From an uncultured Acidobacteriota bacterium (GTDB lineage: Bacteria; Acidobacteriota; Terriglobia; UBA7540): DNA of 64,000 nucleotides. Below are positions 1,209 to 24,300 of this stretch, one piece after another. The stretch spans positions 128,001 to 192,000 of the forward strand of contig CAWDSK010000002.1 of the NCBI GenBank assembly GCA_963804995.1, read 5' to 3'. The position numbers and the translations under genes were made by a program. The notes under the pieces were generated by a model. The model did no database searches. It was not told the origin of the DNA and saw only the letters and a program-made list of their open reading frames with translations. Position 1 is the stretch's first letter; each line of letters opens with the position of its first letter.

Positions 1209-1415
1209 ATGGAAAACACCGAAGGCCATCCTGATTGGGAAGACTTTGAGGCCGCAGCCAAAAGACCGATAGAGCAACATATACGTAATTCGTTTATCCA
1301 CACCTACAAGCCCGTTCTGGATGATACGGAGTACCGCTCGTTCGACACCATGGAGGAGTATCGTCAGTGGTGTCAAAGCAATTTGCCGCGCTGGCTTGGC
1401 TATCATCGAGACTGA
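1209..1415 (+). CDS. Small hypothetical protein (68 aa), probable partner of the downstream nucleotidyltransferase remnant
   Basis: ATG 6 nt after the gyrB stop; protein-like composition; no family confidently recognised. Confidence 0.6.
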   Translation: MENTEGHPDWEDFEAAAKRPIEQHIRNSFIHTYKPVLDDTEYRSFDTMEEYRQWCQSNLPRWLGYHRD

Positions 1416-1640
1416 TTCCTTTAATTACGCAACGGCCCCTATGATGTGGACCTGATCTTTGCACCCGACGGCATCGAAAGATTTGAGGATGCCTGGAAGC
1501 GGCGCCTCGAACGCCACGGTTTCCCGGTTGCCAGTATCGATGACATTGTGCGAAGCAAACAGGCGGCGAACCGTCAGAAGGATCGGGAATCACTGCCACG
1601 ATTGTTGTCCTTCAGGGACTGGTTGAAGCAGCACAGGTGA
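1412..1640 (+). pseudogene. Internally deleted nucleotidyltransferase-like gene
   Basis: Retains the C-terminal NGPYDVDLIFAPDG...[22 protein letters not shown] signature; the N-terminal catalytic part is absent. Confidence 0.6.
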
Positions 1641-1655
1641 ATTTCTGGAATCGCC

Positions 1656-1731
1656 TGGGCGACATCCTCGAACCCCGCCGCCAGTTCATCGAAGACAACG
1701 CACTGGATGTGAAGAACTTGGATATCAAACC
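1656..1731 (+). repeat. Degenerate direct-repeat copy of the gyrB 3' end (1129-1205)
   Basis: Translates as [23 protein letters not shown] versus [23 protein letters not shown] in gyrB; most differences are synonymous; the stop codon has lost its T. Confidence 0.95.
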
Positions 1732-1745
1732 CTGCGTGGGTTAGA

Positions 1746-1788
1746 TTGACCCGAGTTCAAACCAAGTGTATACTTCGTAGTGTACACT
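1746..1788 (+). promoter_or_regulatory. Sigma70-type promoter of the phd-vapC operon with palindromic operators
   Basis: TTGACC (1746-1751), 17-bp spacer, TATACT (1769-1774); palindromes AAGTGTATACTT (1764-1775, imperfect) and AGTGTACACT (1779-1788, perfect). Confidence 0.75.
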
Positions 1789-1807
1789 TTGGCTAGGATG
1801 GCGATTT

Positions 1808-2050
1808 ATGGTTGTCACTGCGAAACAATTGCGCTTAAACACCTCAGGGATCCTGAAGAGGGTTCAACGCTTGGGTTCCGTTACGGTCACGTTGCGAGGC
1901 AAGCCCATCGCGAGGCTATCCGCTCTGAAGACAAAAGAGCCAATGCGCGTTGAAGACCATCCTGCCTTTGGGATGTGGGCCGACCGGGAAGACATGAAGG
2001 ATGTTCGTGCTTGGCTGAAAAAGATCCGCACTCCCAGGTACCTGCGTTGA
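1808..2050 (+). CDS. Phd/YefM-family antitoxin
   Basis: VTAKQLRLNTSGILKRVQ...VTVTLRGKPIARL pattern; overlaps the PIN gene at TTGA. Confidence 0.85.
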   Translation: MVVTAKQLRLNTSGILKRVQRLGSVTVTLRGKPIARLSALKTKEPMRVEDHPAFGMWADREDMKDVRAWLKKIRTPRYLR

Positions 2051-2430
2051 TATTCGACACAGACATTCTCATCTGGGTACACCGCGGCCTGCCCGCGGCT
2101 GCCCGGTTCGTCAATAGCGTTCCACTGCCGGACCGAAATTTGTCAGCTATCTCCTACATGGAGCTTCTGTACGGAAGCCGCGATGCCGGTGACCTGAGAA
2201 ATATCGAGAAGATGGTGGAGGAATTGTTCACCGAAGTCGTTCCCATAACCGACAGCATCAGCGTGTCAGCGGTGCGCATCATGAAATCGTTTGTTCTGGC
2301 GCATCGCCTCGATGTGAGTGACGCGCTGATTGGTGCTACCGCGCTTATTCGCCAAGAATCGCTGGCAACCGCCAACTATAAACACTTTAAGTTCATTCCC
2401 GGACTTAGCGTGCGGAGGTTTCACCCCTGA
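2047..2430 (+). CDS. vapC: PIN-domain VapC-family toxin
   Basis: TTG start overlapping the antitoxin stop; IFDTDILI, SAISYMELLYG, DALIGATA and LATANYKHF motifs. Confidence 0.9.
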   Translation: MIFDTDILIWVHRGLPAAARFVNSVPLPDRNLSAISYMELLYGSRDAGDLRNIEKMVEELFTEVVPITDSISVSAVRIMKSFVLAHRLDVSDALIGATALIRQESLATANYKHFKFIPGLSVRRFHP

Positions 2431-2745
2431 GCAAGACCTTGGGGTGCGGCCTTCGGATCACCGGAGCGGGAGGCAAAAGAACTGCGCCTCACAACTTGGC
2501 ATACCTATCTTGTCTTAGACCCCAATTTTCTGACAAACAGCAACGTTATTCTCTTGACATTCGTTACTACTATGATACCATAGATAGGTAGTCTAAGATT
2601 CTTGGTGGGAAACCTGCCCACGGACCCGCTCAGCAATGCGCCACACTCCATGAACCCTCGTTTCCGACGAATCCCGAAACCATATTCCAGGCACGGCCAC
2701 ACCGGCTGCCCCAATCCTTAACTGCTTAGCATTGGCTACCATGCG

Positions 2746-2773
2746 CTAACCACTAACCACTTACCACTAACCA
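2746..2773 (+). repeat. Four tandem heptamers CT(A/T)ACCA
   Basis: ctaacca-ctaacca-cttacca-ctaacca just upstream of the RBS of the 2794 gene. Confidence 0.85.
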
Positions 2774-2793
2774 CTGCTCTTCGGAGGTCTTCC

Positions 2794-3909
2794 ATGTCGC
2801 TCGTCAAAAAAACCACCCTGACCAAAAGGAAAGCTGCCGCCAATCGGCGTAACGCGAGTCAATCCACAGGTCCGGCGACGCCGGAGGGGAAGGAGCGCAC
2901 AGGCGCCGCCCACCTGCGTCATGGCTTTTATGCCAAGGCGCAGGAGGACGCTTTGCGCGATTTGGGCGAGGACCCTGCCCACTTTGAGGAACTGCTCGCC
3001 GGACTGCGCCAGGAATTCACACCCCAGGGCGCCTTGCAGGACGAATTGGTTATCCGTCTGGCGCGAGTGCTGTGGCTGATGGGCCGCGCCGATCGCTCGC
3101 AGGAGGGCGCCGCGCTGCGCCGCGCCAGGAGCGCCGACCAAGGGCGCGACAACCGGCTGCACGCGCAGATGATGCGCCTCAAGATGACGGCGGAGCGATT
3201 GCGCTTGCTCGTCAAATCCGTAGCGCGCGAGCATTACGTCACCACTCCCGAGGACCTCGAAAAAATGAAGAACTTGCACCAGGAGGAAGTGTTAAAGGAT
3301 ATGGGCGATATCACTCTGGCCCTCTTCTACCAACTCCAGGCCCCGGGCACGGATGAGAACGGCATTGACGAGATGGAGAAAGCGCGCAGAATGGTCGCCC
3401 AGGCCAAGGAGATCTTTGGCATTGGTGCGACCGCCTCGTTCCCGCCCCAAGCGAACGTGGCGCCGGGTTCCAGCCAGCAGGAAACGCCATCCAGCGAAGC
3501 TTCGGGCGTTAATCCGGCGCCTGCCGACCCCGGGGTGGGCGCTACAGAAGAGGAAAAGGATGAGCGATATCCCAACATCATTGCGGCGGATTGGGAGGCG
3601 CGGGAGCGTCCACGCCAGCTTCTGGAGAATATCCTCACCCGGCAGGTGGAGAGTTGCGAGGCTCAGCGTAAGGCCCTCCTGAGGGAGTCGGTGGCCGGTC
3701 CTTCACCTTACGAACTCGCCGCGGAAATCGCTCCCAGCCACGCCGATGCCTTGCTAATGCGCCGAATGCAAGATGCCAACATGCGGGAAGTCCGCCGACT
3801 CACCAACCTGCTGCTGAAAATCAAACGCCAAGAGGGCAAAAGGGAAGCCGTGGAAGCGAGCGAAGAGGATATTCAAAGCCACGATATAATAGAAAACAAA
3901 GGCAGTTAG
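2794..3909 (+). CDS. Hypothetical helical protein with an N-terminal ANRRNAxxSTGPxTPEGK...HG motif
   Basis: GGAGG RBS; 371-aa ORF with GC-type codon usage; motif recalls HGGxSTG/terminase-small-subunit-like segments; function unknown. Confidence 0.8.
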   Translation: MSLVKKTTLTKRKAAANRRNASQSTGPATPEGKERTGAAHLRHGFYAKAQEDALRDLGEDPAHFEELLAGLRQEFTPQGALQDELVIRLARVLWLMGRADRSQEGAALRRARSADQGRDNRLHAQMMRLKMTAERLRLLVKSVAREHYVTTPEDLEKMKNLHQEEVLKDMGDITLALFYQLQAPGTDENGIDEMEKARRMVAQAKEIFGIGATASFPPQANVAPGSSQQETPSSEASGVNPAPADPGVGATEEEKDERYPNIIAADWEARERPRQLLENILTRQVESCEAQRKALLRESVAGPSPYELAAEIAPSHADALLMRRMQDANMREVRRLTNLLLKIKRQEGKREAVEASEEDIQSHDIIENKGS

Positions 3910-6797: not shown

Positions 6798-6906
6798 GGT
6801 AGTAGGTCAATTTAATGTAGAGGCGGCGGAATTCATCCCGATCTTATCGGGACGCCGCCATTTGGCGAGGTAAACTCGCCGCTACGACATCAAATTGACC
6901 CACCAA
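6798..6906. repeat. GTAG/CTAC REP doublet (REPIN-like) inside outer inverted repeats, copy 1
   Basis: GTAG-AGGCGGC...GCCGCC-ATTT-GGCGAGGTAAACTCGCC-GCTAC; homologous to 38328-38439 and to 60356-60444 (reverse complement). Confidence 0.9.
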
Positions 6907-6963
6907 CGAAGCGGGTTGAGAGTTGAGCCCAGTCGCGCTATTCTGAGATGTGGGGTTGTAGTC

Positions 6964-7785
6964 ATGGATGAACTGGAAAGCAAGCTACAGCGGCTGGAGT
7001 CGCAACTGGGTCAGTTGCCTTCGTTGATCGTCGCCTACTCGGGCGGCGTGGATTCCGCATACCTTGCCTATGCGGCCCACCACGCGATGGGTAAGCGCAT
7101 GCTCGCGGTGACGGCTTTGAGTGCCAGTTACTCCGCGCGCGACCGCGCCGAAGCGGAGAAATGCGTAGCGCGCTTCCAGTTCCCCCACGAGTTCATCACG
7201 ACCGATGAGCTCGCGAATCCGAGCTATCGCGCCAATCTCGGGGACCGCTGCTATTTCTGCAAAGATGAGCTTTTCGTAAAGCTCGACGAACTGGCTGGCC
7301 AGCGCGGCATTGCGGCCGTTGCCTACGGAATTAATGCGGACGATCTGGGTGACTGGCGCCCCGGCCAGCAGGCCGCCCGCGAGCACAAAGTTTTGACGCC
7401 GCTGCTCGATGCGGGAATGACCAAGGCGGATATCCGCGAACTCTCGCGTCGCGTCGAACTGCCCGTATGGGATCGTCCCGCGTCCGCGTGCCTTTCCTCG
7501 CGCATTGCTTATGGAATTGAAGTAACGCCGGAGCGCCTGGCCATCGTCGAGAAAGGCGAAGAGGCCCTGCGCGCGCTCGGCTTCCGCCAGTTCCGCGTGC
7601 GCTATCACGAAGAGCTGGCTCGCCTTGAAATTTCTCCGGAGGAAATGCCGCGGGCACTCGACCCGGAAATGGCCCGCAAGTTTGTTGAGATCTTCAAAGC
7701 CCTGGGCTTCAAGTTTGTCACCCTGGACCTGGAAGGCTACCGCACCGGGTCCATGAATTCTCTCCTGGTGAGCATTCAGAAGTAG
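6964..7785 (+). CDS. larE: ATP-dependent sacrificial sulfur transferase, LarE family
   Basis: PP-loop AYSGGVDS, RCYFCK, RPG, ACLSSR, FRVRYH and DLEGYRTGSMN motifs. Confidence 0.9.
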   Translation: MDELESKLQRLESQLGQLPSLIVAYSGGVDSAYLAYAAHHAMGKRMLAVTALSASYSARDRAEAEKCVARFQFPHEFITTDELANPSYRANLGDRCYFCKDELFVKLDELAGQRGIAAVAYGINADDLGDWRPGQQAAREHKVLTPLLDAGMTKADIRELSRRVELPVWDRPASACLSSRIAYGIEVTPERLAIVEKGEEALRALGFRQFRVRYHEELARLEISPEEMPRALDPEMARKFVEIFKALGFKFVTLDLEGYRTGSMNSLLVSIQK

Positions 7786-7824
7786 ACTTCAACTGCACCC
7801 CGCTGTAAAAATCGGAGGTCGTGC

Positions 7825-8754
7825 ATGCGCGCTCGCAGTCTGGTTGTAGTAGGTCTCCTCCTTGCGTTTTCTGCACCGTGCGGCGCGCAAAATCAGAACC
7901 TTGCCCAACGGCTTGGATATCCTTCTGATGCAAAATTACTGATCCTCCACGCTGATGACTTGGCGGTCGCGCACTCCGTGGACATGGCCACCTTCGAGGC
8001 CTTGAATCAGGGCGCCGTGTCATCCGCCAGCATCATGATTCCGTGCCCATGGCTCACCGAAGTGGCGGAGTACGCCAAGGCTCACCCCGAGGCCGACCTC
8101 GGCTTGCACCTCACCTTGTCGAGTGAATGGAAGAGCTACCGATGGGGATCCATCTCGCCGCGCGACCAGGTGCCGTCACTCTTCGATCCGCAAGGCTATC
8201 TCTGGCCGACGACGGCCGAGGCGGCGCCCCGTATCAATCCGCAAGAAGCCGAGCGCGAAATACGGGCGCAAGTAGAGACGTCCTTGAGGATGGGAATCCA
8301 CCCCACCCATCTCGACTCCCACATGGGAGTGCTGTACACCAAACCTGCCCTGGTGGCGGCTCTCGCGAATGTTGCGCATGAGTATCACATCCCATTCCTA
8401 TTGCTGAAGGTCCCCGGCGCGCCTCCCAACATGTACGCAGCCATTAAGCCTACAGACGTGCTTGTCGACCACTTGTTCGTGGCCAGTCCGCCCATCAAGG
8501 CGGATGACTGGTTGAGCTACTACACGCACCTTGTCGAGACGCTCCCCACCGGCGTTTCGGAGTTCATCGTTCACCTCGCCTACGACGACGCCGAAATGCA
8601 GGCCATCACGGTAGATCATCCCGACTACGGCAGTGCCTGGAGGCAGCGCGATTTCAACGTTATGACCAGTCCGGAATTCCGCCACATGCTGGAGGAGAAC
8701 CACGTCCGGTTGGTAACGTGGCGAGAACTGGGCAAGCTGCTGCCGATGCAGTAA
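7825..8754 (+). CDS. Secreted YdjC/ChbG-family carbohydrate deacetylase
   Basis: Signal peptide; LILHADD, GLHLTL and THLDSHMG motifs. Confidence 0.88.
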   Translation: MRARSLVVVGLLLAFSAPCGAQNQNLAQRLGYPSDAKLLILHADDLAVAHSVDMATFEALNQGAVSSASIMIPCPWLTEVAEYAKAHPEADLGLHLTLSSEWKSYRWGSISPRDQVPSLFDPQGYLWPTTAEAAPRINPQEAEREIRAQVETSLRMGIHPTHLDSHMGVLYTKPALVAALANVAHEYHIPFLLLKVPGAPPNMYAAIKPTDVLVDHLFVASPPIKADDWLSYYTHLVETLPTGVSEFIVHLAYDDAEMQAITVDHPDYGSAWRQRDFNVMTSPEFRHMLEENHVRLVTWRELGKLLPMQ

Positions 8755-8831: not shown

Positions 8832-9726
8832 CTACTTCGCAAATTCCTTTGCGACTCGAATTGTTCGGGTGTGGATTTCGACGGTGTCCTCTACGCGGCG
8901 GGCATAACCTCCGGCGAGCGTGACTGCCACTGGGATTTTCCTGGCGCGGGCCTTCTCAAACACCAACCGGTCGCGCCGCTCGAGTCCCTCAGAGAGAGCC
9001 TTAGCCCGCCGAGTTGGTCATTTTGATAAGGGTCCGCCCCCGCCACGTAGAACATCAGGTCGGGCTGGAATCCGCTGAGCGCTTGGTCGAGGCCTTTTTC
9101 AAGCTCCTGCAAGTATTCCGCGTCTTCGACCGCGTCGCGCAGGTCGATGTCAAGCGTGCTGGGAGGCTTGGGGTAGGGATAGTTGTTTACCTGGTGGATG
9201 GAAAGAGTGTACACGGTGTGATCGCCGGCGAAGATCGCGGCGGTCCCGTTGCCTTGATGCACATCGCAGTCCACCGTCATGGCGCGCTCGATGACTTTGT
9301 CTTTCTGCAAGCGGCGAATGCCGATGGCGAAATCGTTCAGCACGCAGAAGCCTTCGCCATGATCGGGATAAGCGTGATGAAAGCCCCCCCCACGTTTACG
9401 GCTACGCCGCCTTCGAGCGCCAGGCGTCCCGCTAGAATCGACCCGCCTGCCGAGCGCCACACGGCGCGCACCAGCTCGGGGGAGTAAGGGATTTCCAGGC
9501 GCAGGATTTCAAGGTAGGAAAGTTTGCCGGCCTGCAGCTTGCGGATATAGTCGCGGTGGTGGACCAGCGCCACATCCTCATCCGACGCCGGCGGCGGCTC
9601 GACAAAATCCTCCGGACCGGCAATTTGGTCACGCAATACCTTCTCTTTGATCAAGCGATATTTGATGGAGGGAAAAACGTGGCTCCCCAGATTCAAGTCG
9701 TATTGGTCAGAGTAAACGAGTTTCAA
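8832..9726 (-). CDS. Histone-deacetylase-family protein (two apparent frameshifts, near 9385 and 8990)
   Basis: HVFPSIKY, GGGFHHA, GFCVLND, DCDVHQGNGT, AGADPY and TLAGGY motifs spread over three frames; first break lies in a C8 run. Confidence 0.9.
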
Positions 9727-9727
9727 G

Positions 9728-11602
9728 CTATTCTACCGTCACTGACTTCGCCAGGTTACGCGGCTGGTCCACGTCGCAGCCCCGCAATACTCCGATGTGG
9801 TAGGCCAGCAATTGCAGCGGCACCACTTCCAGGATCGCCGAGAGCAGTTCATTGGTATGCGGCAGGACGATCAGGTGGTCCGCCATGTCGCACACTTCGC
9901 GATCGCCTTCGGTCACCAGCGCCAGGATGGAAGCGCCGCGCGCCTTCGCTTCCTTGATGTTCGAAATCGTGCGCTCGTAACGGGTGCGCGAATCCTCCGC
10001 GCTAAAGTCACACGTGGCGATCACCACCACCGGCAGGCCATCGGCGATCAACGCGTTCGGCCCGTGCTTCATTTCGCCGGCAGGATAGGCCTCGGCGTGG
10101 ATGTAGGAAAGCTTCTTCATCTTCAACGCGCCTTCGAGCGCCACAGGAAAGTGCACGCCCCGGCCAAGGAAGAGGAAATCCGATGAGCGGTAGAAATGCC
10201 GCGCCAGGTCTTCAAACTCATCGTCCTTCTGGAGCACGCTCTCGAGTTGTCCGGGGAGCGCGGTCAAAGCCGCCAGCAGTGGCTTTGCTTCCGCGCCTGT
10301 CAGATGGTGGCGGGTTTGCGCCAGGTAAACCGCAAACAGATAGAGCGCGGTCAACTGCGCGGTGAACGTCTTGGTTGAGCCCACACCAATTTCCGGACCC
10401 GCGTGGGTATAGATGGTGCCATGCGCCTCGCGCGGCGCCATGCTGCCCAGCACGTTGCAGATCACCAGCGTCTTCGAACCCTTGGCCTGCGCCTCGCGCT
10501 GGGCGGCGATGGTGTCAGCCGTTTCGCCGGATTGCGTGATGAGCAGCGTGAGTATTTGAGGATCGACCAAGGGGTCACGGTAGCGGAATTCCGAGGCGTA
10601 ATCCACTTCCACGGGCACGCGCGCCAGCCGCTCAATCAATACTTTTCCCGCGAGGCCCGCGTGCCGCGAGGTCCCGGCGGCGACAATCTTGATTTCCTTG
10701 AACGACCGGAAATCCTCCTCGCTGATTTCCATCTCATCCAGGAAGACCTGGCCGGACTCAGGCGAGACTCTGCCCAGAGCTGTGTCGCGCACTGCGCGGG
10801 GCTGCTCGTAGATTTCTTTAAGCGTGAAGTGCTTGAACCCACCCTTTTCGGCCAGAATGGGGTCCCAGGTGATGTGCTGGACGCGGCGCGTCACAGGATG
10901 GCCATCGAAATCGGTCAGCGTCACGCCGTTGGGAGTGAGCACGGCCACGTCGCCGTCGGCCAGGAAGAACAAGTCGCGGGTGTGGTAGAGGATGGCCGGG
11001 ACGTCGCTCGCCACAAAATATTCGTCCTTGCCCAGGCCGATTACCGCAGGCGGTCCCTGCCGCACCGCCACGATCTTGTTCAAATCGCGCGTGGAAATGA
11101 TCGCGAGCGCGAACACCCCCGTGAGCTGCCGCACGGCCGCGCGCACGGCGTCTTCAAGACTGGTCGCAGGGTGTGCGGGATCTAAGCTCCCCAGGTGCTT
11201 CTCCACCAGGTGAGCGATCACTTCCGTATCGACTTCAGTCGAAAACCGGTGGCCTTCGGCTTCGAGCTGCTTCTTCAGCTCCAGGTAGTTTTCAATAATC
11301 CCGTTGTGAACCACCATGACGGTGTGGTGACAATCGGAATGCGGATGCGCGTTCTCCTCCGTGGGCGCGCCATGCGTGGCCCAGCGCGTGTGTCCGATGC
11401 CATAGGCTCCGTCCACGGGATCGAGGCGGATTTTCTCCTCAAGGTTGCGCAACTTGCCCGGCGAGCGGCGGATGTCGAGCTTGCCCTCGCGCATCACCGC
11501 CAGGCCGGCGGAATCGTAGCCGCGGTATTGCAGCCGCTGCAATCCTTCCAGCAGTACGGGTACCACGCGCTTGTTTCCGATGTAGCCGATAATTCCCGAC
11601 AT
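9728..11602 (-). CDS. glmS: Glutamine-fructose-6-phosphate aminotransferase homolog with substituted catalytic residues
   Basis: [37 protein letters not shown] and [11 protein letters not shown] motifs; begins MSG instead of MCG. Confidence 0.93.
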
Positions 11603-11800
11603 GATATTTCTCTTTAAGGAAGGTGGTGCAGCCCGAAACTCTCACGCCAACGCGGCGGCGAGTTGATGAATTGCTGATTATAGCAGCAGCACGCTCAGGC
11701 ACACTGGAATATGACAGGGCCACTCGGGGTGCAGGTTTGTAGCGGCAGCTCGTTTTTCGTCAGCGCCTTCGAGGAATAAATCCCGCCTTAGTGCGGTCAC

Positions 11801-13123
11801 TCACACCACCGGCTGCGCGAAGTAGGCGGGGTAGTGGCGCGGGAAGGACTTCTTCTCGCGATAGGAGCGGGCGAGTTCCATATAAATCCCCAGGTCGCGG
11901 TCGAGGTCCGACTGCGTGCCGTCGAAGTAGAAATTGCGGATGGGGATTCCGCCGTAGGCTTTACTGAGCTTCGGGTAGATGGCCTCGCTCACGATGCCGT
12001 TCATGCAGGTGAAGGGGCTGATATCGATGATGCCGTCGGCGCCATGCTTGGCAAGGTACGCGGCCTTGCCCACGCTCAGCACCATCTCACCCAGCGCACC
12101 GCCGGTGGGCAGATAAGGCCAGGCAAGCTCCAGGATTTCTTCGATGGGAGGCTCTTCATAGCCCACGAAATCATCCTCGAAGGGCGCCAGCAATGCCTTC
12201 TCGTCGGAGTGTTGGATGTGTGAGGTCAGGTGGGCTTTGACCATTGCCAACGAGAGTTTCCGGCCGGTCAGCAGGAGTTTACGTTTCTGCTCGTTGTTGG
12301 TGTACTCAACCCATTCGCCAATGTGGCTCAGCCAAGCCTCCGCCCCGTAGCTTTCCATCTTACGGACGAGGTCTTCGTTGGAGAAGGTGTTGAGGCGGCA
12401 GAAAATTTCGCCCACCACGCCGATCAGCGGGATCTCGCGATCGTAAAGCGCCGGGACACGCTGGAAGCGGGCACGGGCGCGGGTCATGGCCGCGGCGATA
12501 GACTGGAGCTGGCAGGCGGCCTCGGCGCAACTTGATTCGATCGTCTTGCACACGTCTTCCAGAGATTCCTGGAAGGCGCGGTCGGCAGCACCCGGAGCGG
12601 TTTCGTAGGGGCGCGTCTTGAGCAGCGCGCGGTGCAGCGTATCAGCCGCGAGCAGCGCCCGCCACGCCGTCCGCAGGAAAAGGTTGGCGATGTCAGCACC
12701 CAGGTCCGCGTACCCGTTCTCGCTGGTGGGGGAGAGAACTTGCACGTCGCCGTATCCCGCGTCGCGCAGAATCTTGCGCAGGAAGGGCGCGTATTGGCCG
12801 AAGCGGCATGGTCCGTCGGCCGTGGGCATGAAGAAAGCCGTATGTTCCGCGTTGAAGCCGGGCTGCTCGATCACGCGCAGGAAATCGCCCACCGTCACCT
12901 TGGCGGGATAGCATTCGTCGCCGGTGGTGTATTTAGCGCCCAGCTCACGCGTGCGCTCGTCGGACGGCGGTGTGGGTTTCGCGTCCACCCCCAGGAAGCG
13001 GAACGCCGCCGCAAAGGCTTCCGGACTGCCCTCGCCCATTGTGGGGATATAGAGGGTCTTCCCGCTCAGCGGGTGGCCGGGGTCTATTTTGCGGCTGACA
13101 TGACGGTGTCCGAAGAAGGGCAT
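11801..13123 (-). CDS. 2-hydroxyacyl-CoA dehydratase/activase-associated protein (C-terminal module)
   Basis: GDECYP, GPCRFGQY, IGVVGEIF and PFTCM motifs; overlaps the upstream activase gene. Confidence 0.8.
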   Translation of the reverse strand: MPFFGHRHVSRKIDPGHPLSGKTLYIPTMGEGSPEAFAAAFRFLGVDAKPTPPSDERTRELGAKYTTGDECYPAKVTVGDFLRVIEQPGFNAEHTAFFMPTADGPCRFGQYAPFLRKILRDAGYGDVQVLSPTSENGYADLGADIANLFLRTAWRALLAADTLHRALLKTRPYETAPGAADRAFQESLEDVCKTIESSCAEAACQLQSIAAAMTRARARFQRVPALYDREIPLIGVVGEIFCRLNTFSNEDLVRKMESYGAEAWLSHIGEWVEYTNNEQKRKLLLTGRKLSLAMVKAHLTSHIQHSDEKALLAPFEDDFVGYEEPPIEEILELAWPYLPTGGALGEMVLSVGKAAYLAKHGADGIIDISPFTCMNGIVSEAIYPKLSKAYGGIPIRNFYFDGTQSDLDRDLGIYMELARSYREKKSFPRHYPAYFAQPVV

Positions 13124-16100
13124 CGCAAGAATCCTTTGCTGTCGAGATACGCTTCGCAGCGGGTGATGAAGCCTGCGTCGTTCGAGTGCCCGTCGAACTG
13201 CAGGATGAGCGAAGGCTTGCCCGCGGCGTCGTCCAGAAACGACTTGATGTAGGAGTCGGGGCCACACTTGAAGTTCGAAATGTAAACCAGGTGCAGATTG
13301 GGGTGGCGCCGCGCAATGCGGGCCGCGGCCAGGATGCGCCGCCCCGAATTCCAATACATGTTGGGATTAACGTCTGAGATATCCTCGAGGTCCAGCGGCA
13401 GGGCATCCATGGGAAGCACGTTCACACCATAGAGCGCGCGAAGCTTGCGCGGGATATCGCAATTCACGCTGCGGTCATAGAGATTGTACGGCCGCCCCAC
13501 CAGCACCAGGGCCGGTTCCGAAGTTTCCCGCAACTGATCGAGAGCCTCTCTACCCGCGTCCAGCAACGCGTCTGTGAAGGCGCCCTGCGCCGCGTAGGCA
13601 GCCATCACAGCCCGAGCGTTCGCGCGCGCCGACACACCCAGGCCTCGGGCGAACTTAGCCAGCGCCTTTTCCACATGCTTTCGTCCGAGGCGGAAATGCA
13701 CGGTGGGCGCCAGGAACTTGGATTGGGCAGCTTCCAATTGCGGCACCGCGCGGATGACGAACGGGAGGGTCTGGTTCCAGGGGCAGAGGTGGGAATCAAC
13801 CTTGCTCGGCGGCCCTTCCACGTTCACCATGTTGGGAATCAGGATGTAATCGATGCCCTTCTCAAGCAGGTTCTGGACGTGCCCATGCGCCACCTTCACC
13901 GGGAAGCACGGCTGGGCGATGGCCAACTCTTCACCCGCCATGGATATCTTGCGGTCGGTCGGGGAAGAGACTATGACGTCATAATTCAGTTCCTGGAAAT
14001 ACGCACACCAGAAGGGGAAACGGTCGTAGTAATACATCGTACGGGGAATCCCCACGGTGGGGCGGTTTCCCTTGGCCGGCAGCAGCGTTTCTTCCAGCAG
14101 TTTTTCGCGCCACTCGATCAAATCTTCGATCACGGGCTTGCGGTCAGTGCGTGCCCTCTTGCGGAACTTGTCAGAGCACTTGTCTCCCCAGTAGGTGCGT
14201 TGTCCCTCAATATTGAATTCCTTCATGTCGCAATAATTGGAGCAGGCCTGGCACACGAACTCGCGAGTGGTGAAGTTCACCCGATTCAGGTCATAGCCCC
14301 GGAAGCGGCTGGCCTCGGTGGTGCCCTTCATGCGGTCGCGGGCGATCAGAGCCATCCCAATGGCGCCGATCACGCCGTTGTGCGGCGGCACGATGACTTG
14401 CTTCCCAAGAATCTGCGAGAAGGCCGCCGCCACCGCGTCGTTGTAAGCCGTACCGCCTTGGAAGAAGATCACGTTGCCGATCTTCCGTCCCCGCACCACG
14501 CGGTTCAGATAGTTGAGCGCCACCGAATACGCCAGGCCCGCGGCCAGGTCTCCCACCTCCGCGCCTTTGTGCATCAACCCCGTGACGTCGCGCTCCATGA
14601 ACACGGTGCAGCGCTCGCCCAGGCGCGCGGGGTTGGCGGACCCCAGCGCCAGCCGCGCAAATTCTTCTTTGATGGAAATCCCCAGCTTCTCCGCCTGCTC
14701 TTCCAGGAACGAGCCGGTGCCCGCGGCGCAAGCCTCGTTCATGGTGAAGTCCACCACCACGCCCTTGTTGATGCGGATGAACTTGGAATCCTGCCCGCCG
14801 ATTTCGAAGATGGTGTCCACGGGTTCCATGCCCATCTGATTGCAGACGTGCATGGAGCCGGTCTTGTGCGCGGTGATTTCGTCGTTCACGGTGTCCGCGC
14901 CTACCAGTTCGCCGATCAACTCGCGGCCGGAGCCCGTGGTGCCCACGCCGCGAATATCGAGCGACGTGGCCAGCTCCGCCTCGATTTCCTTAAGGCCGCG
15001 ATCCACAACCTCAATCGGCCGCCCTTGAGTGCGGAGATAAATCTCCTTCAGCAGGTTTCCCTCCGCATCGATCACCACCAGGTTGGTTGAGACGGAACCG
15101 ATGTCGATGCCAAGATAGGCTTCCACCCGTTCGCCCGGAGCAGGCAGCCTCGCAGGTTCCGCGCGGTCGCGCAGCAAGAGGACATGCTGCATGGAGAGGG
15201 GATCTGAACAGGCAAAGTTCTTGCGGGCGGCCTCGTGCTGGCGCAATTGATGAATCCGCTTGAACGACCGCTTGCGGTATTCCTCCGCTTCCAGCATCGC
15301 CGCGCCCATCGCTCCCAGCCACGCGTAGTGCTCAGGAATAAGCAGGTCGGATTCGCTGAGCTTGAACGCCTCACGCAGGGCGTTTGAGACTCCCTGGTTC
15401 ATGGCCACGCCGCCAATAAACGCCACGGGAGGGACCACGGCGCGGCCCTTCACGATGCTCGATTTGTAATTACGCGCCACGGCGTCGCACAGGCCGCGCA
15501 GAATCTGGTCTGTGGTATAACCCTTCTGCTGGGCGTGAATCATGTCGGTCTTGGCGAAGACCGAACAGCGGCCCGCAATCCGCGCCGCGCAACTGGCCCC
15601 GCAGGCCGCGGGACCGACTTCCTCAATTGTGTAGAGCAGCCGTGTGGCCTGCTGGTCGATGAACGAACCCGTCCCCGCCGCGCATTCGCCGCTGGTCTGG
15701 TAATCAAGAATGCCCAGGTGCTTGCCGGACACGTTCGGGTCCATGCGGAGGTATTTGGAAGCTTCCCCTCCCATTTCGAAAACCGTGCGCACTTGCGGGT
15801 AGAACATCCGCAACCCCTTGGCAATGGCGCGGAATTCATTCTCGAAGTAGATGCCCAGAACTTTAGCAATCAGTTGGCTGCCGGAGCCCGTCACGCGAAT
15901 GCCTTCCACGCTTTCTTCCGGCAGGTGGTCGTAGAGCTCCTTCAGCAGGTCGAAGGTCGACTGGATGGGGCTTCCTTGCAGGCGGCGGTAACGCGACATC
16001 ACCAGCGGGCGGCCGGCAAAGGGACTTGCCTCCGGGAAGGAGGCGGCGTAAAAGGTTTCGGATTTCTCGGTAAGCTGCCGAAAACCGGGTCCATCGTCCG

Positions 16101-16164
16101 GGCCCCCAATGGCCGCCAACTTTAAACTAACGGCGCCGATATCCAGACCGATGTTGATGCTCAT
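13084..16164 (-). CDS. CoA-substrate-specific enzyme activase (two BadF/BadG/BcrA/BcrD ATPase domains plus a DUF2229-like region)
   Basis: Two GxDIG...TGSG...EIGGQDSK...CAAGTGSF units; CxxCxNxC, PCFPVK and FKCGPD motifs. Confidence 0.9.
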   Translation of the reverse strand: MSINIGLDIGAVSLKLAAIGGPDDGPGFRQLTEKSETFYAASFPEASPFAGRPLVMSRYRRLQGSPIQSTFDLLKELYDHLPEESVEGIRVTGSGSQLIAKVLGIYFENEFRAIAKGLRMFYPQVRTVFEMGGEASKYLRMDPNVSGKHLGILDYQTSGECAAGTGSFIDQQATRLLYTIEEVGPAACGASCAARIAGRCSVFAKTDMIHAQQKGYTTDQILRGLCDAVARNYKSSIVKGRAVVPPVAFIGGVAMNQGVSNALREAFKLSESDLLIPEHYAWLGAMGAAMLEAEEYRKRSFKRIHQLRQHEAARKNFACSDPLSMQHVLLLRDRAEPARLPAPGERVEAYLGIDIGSVSTNLVVIDAEGNLLKEIYLRTQGRPIEVVDRGLKEIEAELATSLDIRGVGTTGSGRELIGELVGADTVNDEITAHKTGSMHVCNQMGMEPVDTIFEIGGQDSKFIRINKGVVVDFTMNEACAAGTGSFLEEQAEKLGISIKEEFARLALGSANPARLGERCTVFMERDVTGLMHKGAEVGDLAAGLAYSVALNYLNRVVRGRKIGNVIFFQGGTAYNDAVAAAFSQILGKQVIVPPHNGVIGAIGMALIARDRMKGTTEASRFRGYDLNRVNFTTREFVCQACSNYCDMKEFNIEGQRTYWGDKCSDKFRKRARTDRKPVIEDLIEWREKLLEETLLPAKGNRPTVGIPRTMYYYDRFPFWCAYFQELNYDVIVSSPTDRKISMAGEELAIAQPCFPVKVAHGHVQNLLEKGIDYILIPNMVNVEGPPSKVDSHLCPWNQTLPFVIRAVPQLEAAQSKFLAPTVHFRLGRKHVEKALAKFARGLGVSARANARAVMAAYAAQGAFTDALLDAGREALDQLRETSEPALVLVGRPYNLYDRSVNCDIPRKLRALYGVNVLPMDALPLDLEDISDVNPNMYWNSGRRILAAARIARRHPNLHLVYISNFKCGPDSYIKSFLDDAAGKPSLILQFDGHSNDAGFITRCEAYLDSKGFLRCPSSDTVMSAAK

Positions 16165-16608
16165 AGGCTTCCAGGGATTGCTATTGGACGCCAAGGATAA
16201 GGCCACTTGGCCTGCTCATCCACCCCTTCTGTTCCGGCATTCCCGCCGCTCGCCCTGGCACGAGGGATAGTAGGTTCGGGTCAAAACACGCTAAGGCCGA
16301 CTACAAGGAGAAACACCGGCAATTCAGATTCCGAGGGGCGACGGGAGGTCTAAAATCGGCCAATTTGACAGTTAAAATCGGAAGCATAGTCCGATTTATT
16401 GCGACAATCTGTCTCGCCCCTTGATTCATCCGGGCCATCTGACCTGTCGTCGCTTTCCGCGCCAATCATGATATGAGCTCCAAGATGGTTTCTTCCTTAA
16501 CGAAACTCTCCGTGTCCTCCCTAACGCAACATCGCAAATCCTCTTTTTGAGCATAAGTTTTGAATTTTCACGTAGGGCCGACGCTTGGTGCGAATGGCGA
16601 TGGCTTGG

Positions 16609-18044: not shown

Positions 18045-20114
18045 TTACTCATTCCATCCTTCGTGCTCCTGCCAATCCACAATGCGCACGTGCTTCTCTT
18101 CGCGCGGGAGTTCGGAGTAGGTCTTCCGTTCCCCTTCTGCCAGGTTGCCGTCCTGCGATTGATAGATCCAGGTCATTTCCTGCTTTAACGCCGCGGCCTC
18201 TCCGCTCAGGTGGATGGTCACGGGTTCATACTTGTAGGGAGCGGGTTTGAAGCCGCCGGCACCGTAAGCCTGATCGCCCAGCACGATGGTCTGGGGGTTG
18301 AGCAGCTTCTGCTTGAGCATCTCCTGACAAGCTTTGATAACGAACCAGTTCGTGGTGCGATGGTCCACGTGCCGCTCATCGGGATGGGGCAGGGCGATCA
18401 TGGCCGGGTGGAAGGTGGTGATGACTTGTTTGATGGCCTCCAGCACGGCGTCGCGCGCGTACGGCATGTTGGGCTTGTAGACGTGTTCGTAGGGTACGTG
18501 ATCGCAGGCGAGATAAATGGAAAGGAAGGGATCAGAAGATTTCTTGTGCTCGGACCAAATCGCGCCCGATCCGCCGTCCGGCAAGCCCAGGAACTCCAAC
18601 TTATCACGCGAGAGGCCCACGTGTTCGAGCGCCTCGGTGGACTCCGCCATGCGAATCTTGCCGAACTCACGCGCCTCATTGGGGCCGCAGGGCTTGTCGT
18701 AGTAACGCTCACACGCGCCCACATCACCTCCCGTCAGGAAAAGCACCTGAACCGGAATCTTGGCCTCGACCGCCGTGCGGATCAGTCCTGAGTAAGCTTG
18801 TTCATCATCCTCGTGCGCGCAAACGACCAGGAGCGACGCCGGCAATGCGTTCACCGCGATTTCTGTCGTGGTATGAGCGAGCGGCTTGCCCCCTGACTCA
18901 ACAACTTCAAGCTCTACCCGATAAGTTCCGGGCGCGACCGTAGCGGGAATCGCCCACGCGTCCGCAGCCACGGCCTGGGTCTTTCCGGGGGGCAGGTTAA
19001 GGGCGGAAACCAGAGTAGTGGTGTGGAGCTCTTTGCCGGTCATGTCTACGATGCGGGCCCGCAGGTCGGCGCCACTCCACGCTTCCTGCCAGGGATTCTT
19101 CAGAGTGGCCACGATCTTCACGGTGTCTCCGGGACGGTAGAGCGTCTGAGAATGATCCACGGTAATCACCGGAGAACCTTGTCCCGGCGGATAGAAGTCG
19201 CGGTACTTTTTGTAATCAATATCGGAATTGTAGGGATGCGTGAAGTTGCGGCTGTAAGGCTTGGGCACCTCGCGGTCCCAGGTTCGCACGATCGCCGGGG
19301 AAGTGAATTGCATGTCGTAGAGCACCGTGCGGTCGGCGTTCCACACCGCGAGGGTGTACATATCCACTTCCGGTGGGGGGGATTTTTCATTGCGCATGGG
19401 GAGGCCTGAGCCCACCACTTCTTTCAGCTTGCCTTGTAGCAGCGTGGCGGTGCCGGCGGGCATCATGGGGATGGTGACGGCGCCGCCCGCGGGAATGTCC
19501 AAATGATTGCGCAACACTTTTACCGCCAGGTCGGGGTTTTGCTCGCCTTCCTTCGCAAAGAGGGCAATCCAGGGATAGTTGGCGTTTGAGAACTCCACGC
19601 GCAGATCCTTCAGGTCGTGGTCGGACAGGTTCTCGATCGCGACCTCGCAGTTGATGGGCTCACCCACGGTGTAAAAGGTTTTGTCGATGGTGGTACGCGA
19701 AATCCGCACCAGCTTCTTGTAGGCGACAAAGCTGCGAATCTTCTGCCCTGCCATAGGGCGATGCTCGACCCGGTCCTCGACCCGCAAGGTCACCGTATAA
19801 ATTCCGGTGGGGGCCTGGGGAGGAATCGGCCATCCCACTTCATATTCCGCCACGCCCGCTTGCTTGGCGGGAAGCAGGTTCATCTGCACGCTCGTGGTTG
19901 AGGTCGTTCCGTAGTATTGGATTTCGGCGAAGACCACGTAGCGGCTGCCCTCGCCTTTAATTCCGCGCAGCGTGGCGTGAATGTTCGCGAATGATCCGAT
20001 GTTGAATCCTGTGTCCATGGGCGCGCCTTCGAGCGTTATCTCCGCCCCCCAAAGCGGCTGGCCCACTACCAGAAGTCCTCCCACCAGCAAAGTCCACCAC
20101 CACTTGCGCTCCAT
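18045..20114 (-). CDS. Secreted PIG-L/LmbE-family deacetylase with N-terminal beta-rich domains
   Basis: Signal peptide; AHEDDE, LTGGD, LGLPDG and HVDH motifs; N-terminal ~420 aa is beta-strand rich. Confidence 0.85.
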   Translation of the reverse strand: MERKWWWTLLVGGLLVVGQPLWGAEITLEGAPMDTGFNIGSFANIHATLRGIKGEGSRYVVFAEIQYYGTTSTTSVQMNLLPAKQAGVAEYEVGWPIPPQAPTGIYTVTLRVEDRVEHRPMAGQKIRSFVAYKKLVRISRTTIDKTFYTVGEPINCEVAIENLSDHDLKDLRVEFSNANYPWIALFAKEGEQNPDLAVKVLRNHLDIPAGGAVTIPMMPAGTATLLQGKLKEVVGSGLPMRNEKSPPPEVDMYTLAVWNADRTVLYDMQFTSPAIVRTWDREVPKPYSRNFTHPYNSDIDYKKYRDFYPPGQGSPVITVDHSQTLYRPGDTVKIVATLKNPWQEAWSGADLRARIVDMTGKELHTTTLVSALNLPPGKTQAVAADAWAIPATVAPGTYRVELEVVESGGKPLAHTTTEIAVNALPASLLVVCAHEDDEQAYSGLIRTAVEAKIPVQVLFLTGGDVGACERYYDKPCGPNEAREFGKIRMAESTEALEHVGLSRDKLEFLGLPDGGSGAIWSEHKKSSDPFLSIYLACDHVPYEHVYKPNMPYARDAVLEAIKQVITTFHPAMIALPHPDERHVDHRTTNWFVIKACQEMLKQKLLNPQTIVLGDQAYGAGGFKPAPYKYEPVTIHLSGEAAALKQEMTWIYQSQDGNLAEGERKTYSELPREEKHVRIVDWQEHEGWNE

Positions 20115-20303
20115 CTTCTCGTCTCCTCACACCCGTTTGGAATGCAACCATTATTGCTGTCACGCCTGATCAGTGCAAAGCAAATTCTGCACAGCCTGCA
20201 AATGGCCTTGCGCCGCCTGCATGTCGCATTTAGAATGGGCCCACGCGATAAGTCCGTGAAACATAGATATCTTCACCCCCGCTGCCAGGCTCCCTTGCAA
20301 GGG

Positions 20304-21143
20304 ATGCGTGTGTTCGGATGGGTTTCGTTACTTGCCCTGTTGCCGGTCTTCGCGAGCTTGATTTTACGGCATGGGCTGGTCCACGCGGCAAGTCCGCGGG
20401 GCTCTGAGAGCAACACGGTTGAGAGCACCTCGCCCACGGCCGCCGCGACTTCGCTTGACCTGTCCTGGCACGACAGCCTGGGCGATGGTTTCCCTGACAG
20501 CGCGCGCTTGGATAACGTCCAGGACCGCATGAACTTTCTCCACTGGCTGACTTTCCTGGCCGAGACACAGTATTACGCCCCTTGGCCGAGTGCGCAGGGG
20601 GAGATTCAGGATTGCGCGGGGCTCATCCGCTTCGCTTACCGCAATTCACTTCTCGCCCACACGCCAGCCTGGCGGAAGGATGCGGGGCTCCCATTCGATC
20701 CTGGATTCGGTGACATCCGAAAGTTCAATTACCCTTACGGACCACTCGGGCGAGCGCTGTTTCGGACCCAGCCCGGCCCTTCAGGCCCGGAAGACCTTAC
20801 CAGAGGTGCTTTTGCGGAGTTTGCCGACAGCTCAACACTGCTGCGGTACAACACGTTTCCAATAGCACGCGACCTTCGGGCCGCGCGGCCCGGCGACCTG
20901 TTGTTCTTTCACCAAACTGTTGAGCGGGAGCCTTTCCATACCATGTTGTTCGTCGGCAGATCGTACTACCAGCCGCAGGCCTCCGATTGGATCGTTTATC
21001 ACACGGGAGACATTAACGGCCACCGGGGCGAGATTCGCGAGGTGCGCGCGGCTACCTTATTCGAACATCCCGACCCGCGCTGGAGGCCGCTCGCGAGCAA
21101 CCCCAATTTTCTGGGAGTCTATCGCCTGGAAATTTTGCGTTAG
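20304..21143 (+). CDS. DUF1175 (YfaT-like) family protein
   Basis: DCAGLIRFAYR, ARPGDLLFF, HTMLFVG, YHTG and WRP...NPNFLGVYRL motifs; adjacent to the macroglobulin gene; start approximate. Confidence 0.85.
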   Translation: MRVFGWVSLLALLPVFASLILRHGLVHAASPRGSESNTVESTSPTAAATSLDLSWHDSLGDGFPDSARLDNVQDRMNFLHWLTFLAETQYYAPWPSAQGEIQDCAGLIRFAYRNSLLAHTPAWRKDAGLPFDPGFGDIRKFNYPYGPLGRALFRTQPGPSGPEDLTRGAFAEFADSSTLLRYNTFPIARDLRAARPGDLLFFHQTVEREPFHTMLFVGRSYYQPQASDWIVYHTGDINGHRGEIREVRAATLFEHPDPRWRPLASNPNFLGVYRLEILR

Positions 21144-21223
21144 CGGTTGTGGGGGTACGGGTTGCCGTACCCGCTTAGTTCGGTCGCGCGATAAAGAAGA
21201 TGAGGAGAGCCAATGTCCCACCC

Positions 21224-21324
21224 TGTCATCCTGAGCGCAGCGAAGGACCCCTGTAGTTCGTAGCGGTTGGTGCACAGAGCAAACTACGGGGGTTCTTCGC
21301 CCAAAATGCGGGCTCAGAATGACA
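21224..21324. repeat. REP-like palindromic element (GTCATCCTGAGC...GCTCAGAATGAC family)
   Basis: Terminal inverted arms TGTCATCCTGAGC / GCTCAGAATGACA, with inner arms CGAAGGACCC / GGGTTCTTCG. Confidence 0.8.
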
Positions 21325-21341
21325 ACGCAAGCAATGCTCTC

Positions 21342-24300
21342 ATGAATGGCGACGTGCACTATCACGGCAGTACATCGCGAAAAGCCTCTTCATCACGAGG
21401 GGCCCGTGGAGCTGCCAGTGCAGCCCTGGTGGCCGCACTTCTGCTTGCGGGCCTGTTTGTAGCGCCCCGCGCGGCCCTGGCGCAAGAAGAAACCCCCTCC
21501 ACCGAACCATCCTTTTCGATCTCCTCGCGCCAAACATTCGCGCCTTCCCAGCAGCCGAAGGTCTGGATTAGCTTCCGCCAGGTTGACCATTTGGATTTCC
21601 GGGTCTATCGCGTGAAGGACCCCATTCAGTTCTTCTCCAAACTGAAAGACGCCCATACTTTCGGCAGCGAGAAGGCGGAATTGGCCCGCGAGAAAACCTG
21701 GCTCGAGCGTCTTCATGATTGGAAGCGTGACCTGCGATCGAGGATCCGGGATTTCTTCCGCGCGCAAGTGCGCTTTGAAACGCGCTTGCAAATCCACGCC
21801 TCGCACGTGCAGGGGCGGAAACTTCAGCGCATTCCCCTGGACGTTGCGGCTTACGCGCAGGTGCCGCTCCTGAACCGCGAGCAACTCGTGCTCGGCTGGC
21901 GGGAACTTGTGCCCAAGACGCGGGACTCGGAGTTCCAGGAAATCCCCGTCGATATTCACGAGAGGGGTTTGTACCTGGTGGAGGTGGCGTACCGCGAGCT
22001 GCGCGCCTACACCTTGGTGATGGTCACCGACCTGGCGCTGGTTTCGAAAACGGCGCCGGGGCAGGTGCTGCTGTTTGTGGCACGGCGGGACTCCGGCACA
22101 CCCGTGGCAGGCGCCCAGGCTGCAATCTTTAACAACCATCAGGAGCTGGCACGGGGCACGACGGACGCTTCCGGCATCTTTCAAACCACCTTCCAGCAAA
22201 TCAAGGTCGATAACTCCATCATGGTGGCGGTGGCCGATCAAGATGTGGCGGCGACCAGCATCGAGCCTTTCCTCTTCTTCGACACTTCGGCGACGGACTA
22301 CCTGGGCTATATCTACACCGACCGTCCCGTCTATCGTCCGACGCACACGGTAAATTTCAAGGGTATCGTGCGGGCGCGACGCAGCGGTCAGTTTAGCGTC
22401 GACGTGCCGGGGCCGATCACAGTCGAAATCACCGATCCCAACCAGAAGACCGTCTATCAACAGAAACTCAACGTCTCCCCATTCGGTTCGTTCCACGGTA
22501 CGATCACGCTCGGCCCGCTGGCGGCGCTGGGTGAGTACGGCGTCACGGCGCACATTGGCGAAAAGCGCGTGTACGGGTCATTCGAGGTTCAGGAATACAA
22601 GAAGCCGGAATATGAAGTCGCGGTTTCGACGGAGAAGAGCCGGTACCTTCAAGGCGAGACGATCCAGGCCACCATCAGCGCGCGTTACTATTTTGGCGCG
22701 CCGGTTTCGAACGCCCGCGTGAAATATTCTGTCTTCCGCTCGAGCTATCAATTTCCCTACTGGCGAATCCTCTGGGGTGACGAAGCGTACGAAGGGGACG
22801 AAGGCGAAGGGAATTACAATGAAGATTACTTCGGCGAGGAGATTAGCCAGGGCACGGGTCAATTGGATGCGGACGGTGTGCTGCACGTCTCCCTGCCTAC
22901 AGAAGTTGATAAGCAGAAGCACGACTGTCGCTATCGCATCGAAGCGCATGTGACCGACGCCAGCAATCGCGAAATCTTGGGCGGGCATGGCGTGCTGGTC
23001 ACGTACTCGACAGTCGTGGTCTTGTTGGAGACGGATCGCTACGTTTATGCTCCCGGCCAGCGAGCGGAGATTACCGTCCGCACCCTGGACTACGACTCCA
23101 ACCCCGTCTCGACCAACGTCCAGCTTCAGTTTGAAAGCCACGAGAGTTGGGGCTCCGAGGCGCAACGGCGGGTTTTGTCACAGGTGAGTGTGTCGACCGA
23201 CGCCAACGGCTTGGGGCACACTACCTACACCGTTCCCAAGGTTCCCTGGCTCACCCTTCACGCCAGCACCTTCGATCGCAACCAGCGCGAGGCAAGTTTC
23301 GAAAGTAGCCTGTGGATTGCCGGCGCGGGATTCTTTGCCGGCGAGATCCAATACCGCCGCGTCGATCTCTTCCCCGACAAGCATTCATACAAGCCCGGCG
23401 ATACCGCGCACGTGTTGATTGTGACCCATGAACCGGGTGCGCAGGTGCTGGTGACCTCCGAAGGCCAGCAGGTTTACTCATGGTCCGTGCACACGGCGCC
23501 CGGCGATTCGCTGACAGTCAACGTCCCCATTGAGGAGCGTTTCGAACCGAATTTTTTTGTCAATGTGGCCTTCATAAAGAGCGAGCAACTGTTCGAAAGC
23601 TCGAAGAACCTCTCGGTGCCGGCGGTCGAGAAAGTCCTGAAGGTCACGGTTGAAACCGACAAGCCACAATACCGGCCCGGCGATCAGGTGACGTACACCC
23701 TGACGGCGCAAGATCAGCAGGGGCACCCCGTGAGCGCGGAGTTGAGCTTGGGCGTCGTGGATGAAGCCATCTACGCGATTCGACCGGACATTGTTCAGCC
23801 TCCTGAAAAAGTGTTCTACGCGCGCGAGTGGGACCGCGTCTTTACCCAATTCTCGACTGCTTACTGGTTCACTGGCTATTCGGGGCGGCATAAGATGGAT
23901 CTCGCCCAGCTTCGCGGGCCCACGCGCCTCGCGGATTTCAAGAACCCGGGGATGGTCCAGCCCAAAGTTCGCAAGTTCTTCCCTGACACCATCCAGTGGC
24001 TGCCCACGCTGGTGACGGATTCAAGCGGCAAGGCGCGCGCGACTTTCAACTTTCCGGATTCGCTCACCACCTGGCGGGCCACGGTACGCGCCTTTACTCG
24101 CAACACGCTGGTGGGCCAGGTGGTGGGAAAGGTAATCACGCGCAAAAACCTGATCCTGCGCCTGGAAACTCCCCGCTTTATGGATCAGGGCGATACGGCG
24201 ACGCTGACCGGAATCGTGCACAATTATCTCGCGACAGACAAGACCGCGAAGGTCTCGCTCTCGGCAGAAGGTGTGGAGGTGGCCAGCCCGGCGGAAGCCA

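Follow-up and report, generated by a model that had tools for sequence, protein, structure and literature searches.

An uncultured member of the Terriglobia carries a full-length descendant of GlmS, the glucosamine-6-phosphate synthase, in which the nucleophile Cys1 is replaced by serine and the catalytic base Glu488 by lysine. This Ser1/Lys488 gene is the native glmS of its family and a family-wide trait. Synthesis of peptidoglycan and LPS passes through GlmS, which is also a drug target. Its catalytic residues, named in two papers as Cys1, Glu488, His504 and Lys603 (PMC9272926, PMC3224219), are treated as invariant. A family-wide and strongly selected GlmS that lacks both Cys1 and Glu488 is either the first GlmS-derived bacterial sensor or a new catalytic solution. 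We give a probability of roughly 0.5 to the reading that it would be a non-catalytic ligand trap with a housekeeping role in sensing or regulating the supply of amino sugars.

The gene lies in a window of 64,000 nucleotides, which is the whole stretch of DNA that was analysed. The gene and its key residues, placed by alignment to E. coli GlmS and counted over the 206 rows of its clade, are as follows:

9728..11602, minus strand: GlmS descendant of the Ser1/Lys488 clade, full-length, 624 aa, with a class II glutamine amidotransferase domain and two SIS domains
11597..11599, minus strand: Ser1 codon TCG (codon 2), replacing the Cys1 nucleophile; 206/206
11528..11530, minus strand: Gln24 codon CAA, replacing Glu24 (RLQYRG); 205/206
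10664..10678, minus strand: sugar-pocket loop A300-G-T-S-R304 (Cys300 to Ala, Tyr/Trp304 to Arg); Ala 200/206, Arg 202/206
10367..10381, minus strand: G400-S-T-K-T404 (Ala400 to Gly, Ala404 to Thr); Gly 192/206, Thr 206/206
10112..10114, minus strand: Lys488 codon AAG (codon 497), replacing the catalytic base Glu488; 206/206
10064..10066, minus strand: His504, the ring-opening residue, kept; 206/206
9746..9748, minus strand: Lys603, the catalytic lysine in an intact C-tail, kept; 206/206

The open reading frame scores 777 bits against the GlmS profile TIGR01135 (cut-off 418) and has the GlmS architecture of an amidotransferase domain followed by two SIS domains. Structure look-ups (ESM Atlas, AlphaFold, Foldseek) returned GlmS matches alone, the best TM of the predicted model being about 0.8, to GlmS structure 1JXA, with low model confidence for the loops near His504 and Lys603. 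The N-terminal Cys1 and the Glu488 base, both of which define GlmS, are replaced throughout the clade, and the protein should not be filed as an active GlmS, though it is a GlmS descendant; public databases still annotate Ser1/Lys488 proteins as active transaminases. The initial annotation had listed the MSGIIG N-terminus (TCG), the AAG at 10112-10114, the AAGTSRH loop and the retained RWATHG, HNG, QSGET, KHGP and K603-tail motifs. All of these are present, and the alignment places the two codons at Cys1 and Glu488, but the list had missed E24Q, A400G, A404T, L486M and G541A, which together with C300A and Y/W304R are the further substitutions found across the clade. Gln at position 24 also occurs in the PurF of the source genome.

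The clade alignment comprised 86 distinct genes taken from loci and 120 cluster representatives, two sets that may overlap. Ser1 and Lys488 occur in all 206 rows, against Cys1 and Glu488 in all 79 canonical rows, so that the orthologs do share both residues, as the initial annotation had proposed to check. Together with Gln24 they are also present in 120/120 best database homologs and 21/21 genus loci. Ser1 is encoded by TCA (38), TCG (26), TCC (12) and TCT (10), and Lys488 by AAG (68) and AAA (14) in the 82 of 86 genes that fitted the motif used. None of the 206 rows has Ala, Gly or Thr in place of Ser1, or Arg in place of Lys488. The median dN/dS of the Ser1/Lys488 gene, computed over 120 pairs from 16 genomes, is 0.067, compared to 0.060 for the canonical paralog in the same genomes, and thus lies below 1 as had been anticipated.

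Much of the protein has been held constant around the substituted positions. Canonical GlmS has 181 columns with a conservation of 95% or more, and 158 of these stay that conserved in the clade, the oxyanion hole and Arg26 among them; the glutamine pocket, the Trp74 gate, the phosphate loop (position 347 being Thr or Ser), Lys485, His504 and Lys603 are kept in at least 202 of 206 rows. The oxyanion hole (with Asn98/Gly99), the gate, Lys485, His504, Lys603 and the C-tail are invariant, and Ser1 directly follows Met. The clade has 250 columns with a residue uncommon in canonical GlmS; 14 are fully invariant, Ser1 and Lys488 included.

Indel errors are present in the source assembly (in the HDAC gene described below and in split neighbours), and a sequencing error or a decaying pseudogene might be suspected. 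Such an artefact is scarcely credible and we rule it out by the fixation of the same residues in 206 rows with varied synonymous codons, the open frames and the dN/dS of 0.067. None of the sequencing runs screened contained this stretch of the source genome (best share 0.09), and no RNA run turned up for it. Recoding was rejected on the use of four Ser codons and two Lys codons, and nucleic-acid binding was set aside as there is no net-charge shift pointing that way.

A scan of 185,579 species genomes for the exact Lys488 motif, which passes over a few clade variants, gave 109 stretches, of which 104 are at least 75% identical to the 9728-11602 protein; the titled matches among these are Acidobacteria/Terriglobia, some labelled subdivision 13. 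A metagenome scan, whose pattern admits Cys codons too, found Cys1 in all 119 genes read (120 loci) and serves as background only. The five remaining Lys488 matches consist of a frameshifted Marinobacter gene and four genes about 40% identical to the 9728-11602 protein, two of which carry titles, both Patescibacteria. Homologs of these four form an independent clade (support 100; FastTree), with P0121-P0125, P0127, P0129, P0133, P0134, P0142, P0150, P0152-P0154 and P0168 as members and the following genes as located examples:

L091:2659-4485: Patescibacteria Lys488 gene
L102:2662-4482: Patescibacteria Lys488 gene

Like the acidobacterial clade, these are GlmS copies with E488K, which arose independently (Lys488 in 16/17, Arg in one), and Ser1 occurs in two non-sister members; a second, higher-scoring full-length glmS is present in two of the four genomes. 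Unlike the acidobacterial clade, they mostly retain Cys1, Glu24, Cys300 and Tyr304, and their Lys603 tail has been lost. Lys488 has therefore been selected in proteins unable to use the canonical route, which favours a binding role for it, and its independent appearance suggests a repeatable way of repurposing GlmS.

In a quick IQ-TREE analysis of 55 rows, the Ser1/Lys488 clade is monophyletic (SH-aLRT 100) and nested within the native glmS lineage of other Terriglobia. The second glmS of the family is about 45% identical to the Ser/Lys copy and belongs to a separate lineage common to the family and its sister family, the latter having this second glmS only. The genus copies inspected are canonical (MCGIVAY, RLEYRG, ALKLKEIAY), as are the residues read in 51 outgroup glmS genes. 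The simplest inference is that the ancestor of the order had both copies, and that the family swapped the catalytic residues of its native copy on the stem and conserved it thereafter. Three genomes (G002, G063, G124) hold the Ser/Lys gene twice, at full length, in their assemblies, by duplication or bin contamination.

A canonical glmS elsewhere in the source genome, which the initial annotation had suggested looking for, was not found by tblastn at E 1e-3, and glmM, glmU and murA are present there. Among the 102 family genomes that are at least 85% complete, the canonical copy is present in 84, a likely fragment occurs in one (G052), and no copy was found in 17; the source genome is one of these, and some are 97-98% complete in 7-30 contigs. 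A search for the Ser/Lys copy came up empty in just two of the 102 (G047, G091), with fragments in G067; the difference between the absences of the two copies gives p=0.0007 in a sign test. In relatives the canonical copy is flanked by genes that, in four genomes (G000, G114, G115, G058), lie 200-400 bp apart inside a contig, leaving clean syntenic gaps. One example is L183:7485-7692 (G000, contig C5), where about 200 bp separate the MFS and BON-domain genes between which relatives have canonical glmS; the GT2-PMT-asnB cluster that adjoins canonical glmS in relatives is in G000 on another contig, near glmM. For any single genome, the canonical gene may have been relocated into unassembled DNA.

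On a FastTree phylogeny of 68 clade proteins, 14 of them from genomes without the canonical copy, its absence requires 11 changes, at least eight of which are forced by well-supported branches, and the absences are no more clustered than shuffled labels. Of 171 other Terriglobia, 168 have a glmS match, a further one carries the gene in frameshifted pieces and the last two gave no match, and the contrast of 17/102 with 2/171 gives a Fisher value of 1.8e-6, to be read with the reservation that kin are not independent and the completeness cut-offs differ. No residue marks the Ser/Lys genes from genomes without the canonical copy in a comparison of 8 with 35 sequences. No glmS match of full length was obtained in two Terriglobia outside the family, G185 (99% complete), which carries a NagB-II-like gene, and G189 (92%).

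An alternative supply of glucosamine-6-phosphate could bear on these losses, since the loss of glmS in E. coli is suppressed when NagB is overexpressed (PMC11822699). NagB-like genes with intact motifs occur in 14/17 genomes without the canonical copy and in 46/85 others, a weak association (p=0.034) for which the cut-off was picked after viewing the table, kin are not independent and three borderline genomes would weaken the result. By that cut-off three genomes have neither NagB nor canonical glmS. All 24 genomes that bear NagB outside the family have glmS, one of them in frameshifted pieces, so NagB alone is insufficient to explain the losses. A NagB-II-like gene was rejected as a discriminator because it is near-universal in the family (14/16). 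A bypass by NagB-type supply is thus possible, but does not fully explain why this family alone drops the canonical gene.

The neighbourhood of the gene and its upstream region contain the following features:

8832..9726, minus strand: HDAC/AcuC-family deacetylase gene with two single-base frameshifts in the assembly, a frequent, non-obligatory neighbour
6895..8754, plus strand: larE-like and ydjC-like genes; the HDAC-larE-gyrA neighbourhood also stands beside canonical glmS in other Terriglobia
11677..11685, minus strand: extended -10 promoter-like element TGCTATAAT, conserved upstream of clade genes

The HDAC gene starts with TTG at 9726, 1 nt past the stop of the GlmS-like gene, as first described. 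Compared with a close relative it lacks two single bases, one in a C8 run at 9384-9391 and one at about 8990. These deletions are probably assembly errors: the gene is intact in relatives, the extra base at 9391 is present in two contigs (other organisms' contigs from four sequencing runs), and other genes in the source assembly are split too, so that indel errors are common there. A functional coupling of the two genes, which the initial annotation had put forward, is not supported. The HDAC gene starts within 300 bp of the clade gene in 26/59 loci and within 1.5 kb in 37/59, and HDAC and LarE genes are near canonical glmS in 6/24 outgroup loci; obligatory coupling was accordingly rejected and the link is read as ancestral, inherited synteny. 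A role for the larE-like neighbour in transferring sulfur to Ser1 was rejected as well, as larE also flanks outgroup canonical glmS. A Nudix hydrolase gene lies between the GlmS-like and HDAC genes in five loci (L051, L054, L056, L058, L059), and the commonest upstream gene, conserved, 400 aa long, on the same strand and argJ-like by eye, occurs in 22/75 loci (e.g. L079, L083).

The extended -10 element was found in 68/86 clade loci, compared to a shuffled mean of 1.06 and to 1/28 and 0/52 in two canonical groups. It stands 21-24 nt before the start codon in 12 loci, which, if the element is a promoter, indicates that the annotated start is real and supports the Ser1 N-terminus. A consensus promoter scan, which demands a -35 match, did not pick up the element, nine loci gave no Rfam match, and no further family-wide leader motif was obvious by eye in a third of the leaders. 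Elsewhere in the window, 11801-16206 (minus strand) encodes a fused acyl-CoA dehydratase-activase-like gene (two ATPase domains and DUF2229) with a DUF2229-like partner directly upstream, an arrangement also present in two close relatives. Positions 1294-3909, between gyrB and gyrA, hold two ORFs, one PIN-like and one of 371 aa without an assigned kind, and 18045-26075 holds a PIG-L deacetylase-domain protein, a DUF1175 gene and a 1602-aa ORF that is alpha-2-macroglobulin-like by eye.

The initial annotation had offered either a pseudoenzyme sensor or regulatory subunit, or an enzyme with a serine nucleophile; what stands is a conserved, non-canonical GlmS under purifying selection (0.067), for which the sensor is the best reading and the serine enzyme a live rival. 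A regulatory subunit of canonical GlmS as its sole role would call for an active paralog in every genome, and does not agree with the absence of the canonical copy from the source genome and from 17/102 family genomes. As a ligand trap, the native copy would have been freed by the second glmS in the ancestor of the order; E488K would then block proton transfer and C1S would block futile glutamine hydrolysis. The kept pockets, Trp74 gate and C-tail may still let binding open and close the domains, inter-domain communication of the Arg26 type being described in PMC7000685, and glutamine and hexose phosphate would be bound without turnover. Reasoning from the residues rather than from coordinates, Lys488 and Arg304 would favour C1-negative ligands such as fructose-1,6-bisphosphate and 6-phosphogluconate and disfavour glucosamine-6-phosphate. 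The signal would be passed to a partner, for which a candidate is GlmR/YvcK, present in 58/61 family genomes and a stimulator of GlmS in B. subtilis according to PMC13046274. Glucosamine-6-phosphate itself would come from the second, canonical GlmS and, where this is gone, from deaminases in reverse or from salvage.

In favour of the ligand trap, E. coli GlmS with Cys1 changed to Ala is dead in vivo, failing to rescue a glmS nagB strain (PMC11822699). In related deglycases bond breaking, unlike binding, depends on the equivalent Glu, and even a change to Asp abolishes activity (PMC10285752). The 158 of 181 conserved columns and the kept functional residues of both pockets count for it too, as do the canonical paralog in 84/102 family genomes with a NagB-like gene in 14 of the 17 that lack it, and the Patescibacteria Lys488 proteins without the Lys603 tail. 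Against it stand the 17/102 genomes where the canonical copy was not found, with scattered absences and clean gaps in four genomes, a strictness at Ser1 and Lys488 that exceeds what a dead site needs, and a protein with no output domain and no obligatory neighbour.

Those losses are best explained, among the rivals, by a rewired, active and essential glucosamine-6-phosphate synthase, but this needs two unprecedented active sites and we regard it as unlikely, though to be taken seriously. Its nucleophile would be Ser1, of the Ntn type, whose N-terminal amine could be tuned by the missing charge of Glu24, or else the enzyme would take ammonium directly. On the imine formed with Lys603, the C1 proton would be carried to C2 by Lys488, either carbamylated or with a pKa that Arg304 lowers, and the canonical paralog would be an accessory copy. 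An essential enzyme of this kind would directly account for 17 canonical absences against two of the Ser/Lys copy and for the clean gaps. The presence of glmM, glmU and murA in the source genome means that the product is needed, and the invariance of the oxyanion hole, gate, Lys485, His504, Lys603 and C-tail, the gene's own conserved promoter-like element, and a sister family with the other glmS alone, consistent with either one sufficing, speak for it as well. Cys-to-Ser mutants of class II amidotransferases, however, lose glutamine-dependent activity, and both active sites would have to work with new residues simultaneously. The Glu position is moreover intolerant in homologs (PMC10285752), the Patescibacteria Lys488 clade lacks Lys603, and the canonical copy is kept in 84/102 genomes under strong selection.

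Also doubtful, and ranked behind the rewired synthase, is a neofunctionalised enzyme, in which ammonia or some other amine supplied by a Ser-Ntn amidase would be channelled to a sugar-phosphate site with two lysines, Lys603 at C2 and Lys488 near C1; that site would act on another, probably anionic, sugar phosphate to give a product other than glucosamine-6-phosphate. Ser-Ntn amidases and the two-lysine imine chemistry of PdxS are precedents, Ser1 and Lys488 vary no more than the catalytic residues that were kept (both are in the 14 of 250 columns), the channel and both pockets are kept, and Lys488 arose twice. Such an enzyme leaves the loss of the canonical copy unexplained, and no conserved pathway gene adjoins it (argJ-like in 22/75 loci, HDAC in 37/59). 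Improbable, finally, is a dead subunit that would heterodimerise with canonical GlmS, lending His504 and tuning activity as in trypanosome enzymes. His504 and Lys503 are indeed kept in 206/206 rows, the equivalent His of human GFAT-1 is supplied by the other monomer (PMC7000685) and both genes co-occur in most genomes, but the two proteins are only about 45% identical, the partner was not found in 17 genomes where the Ser/Lys gene is intact, and no site marks the Ser/Lys genes of these partner-less genomes (8 versus 35 sequences).

If the protein is inactive, as a ligand trap would be, 17/102 genomes are without a known dedicated route to glucosamine-6-phosphate, which bears on the group being uncultured, and the annotation of Ser/Lys proteins as active transaminases is wrong. 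If the rewired synthase were true, it would be the first GlmS without the textbook cysteine and glutamate, and it would explain why at least eight lineages dropped the normal enzyme.

Among known systems, GlmS/GFAT (EC 2.6.1.16; TIGR01135; PDB 1JXA, 2J6H, 3OOJ) shares its architecture and fold with the Ser/Lys protein, together with nearly all binding and channel residues, His504 and Lys603, and the Ser/Lys protein is 67-72% identical to native GlmS from the nearest other families of Terriglobia; unlike GlmS/GFAT, the clade has Ser1, Lys488, E24Q, C300A, Y/W304R, A400G, A404T and G541A fixed or nearly fixed. The open-access literature searched gave no natural Ser1/Lys488 GlmS and no natural Ser1 class II amidotransferase. 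The isomerase-domain-only NagB-II/GlmD deaminases and FrlB/FraB deglycases have the same SIS sugar-phosphate pocket with a His partner and need no Cys1. They are without the amidotransferase domain and keep the Glu base, whereas the Ser/Lys protein is the reverse; it scores 109 against the NagB-II profile (cut-off 430) and does not have their layout, a SIS pair standing alone in which 16 residues separate Glu and His. The SIS fold is used for sugar-phosphate sensing by the glucokinase regulatory protein and RpiR-type sensors. The trypanosome prozyme and DHS are likewise reported to be conserved enzyme copies without catalytic residues beside an active copy; unlike the case of dead-paralog regulators, no DNA-binding domain or partner was found for the Ser/Lys protein, and it can persist where the active copy is missing. 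Serine Ntn hydrolases, penicillin G acylase for example, are not amidotransferases and expose their serine by autocleavage. The Ser/Lys protein likewise has the oxyanion-hole residues on an Ntn fold, and its Ser1, from which Met is expected to be removed, would then be N-terminal and a putative nucleophile.
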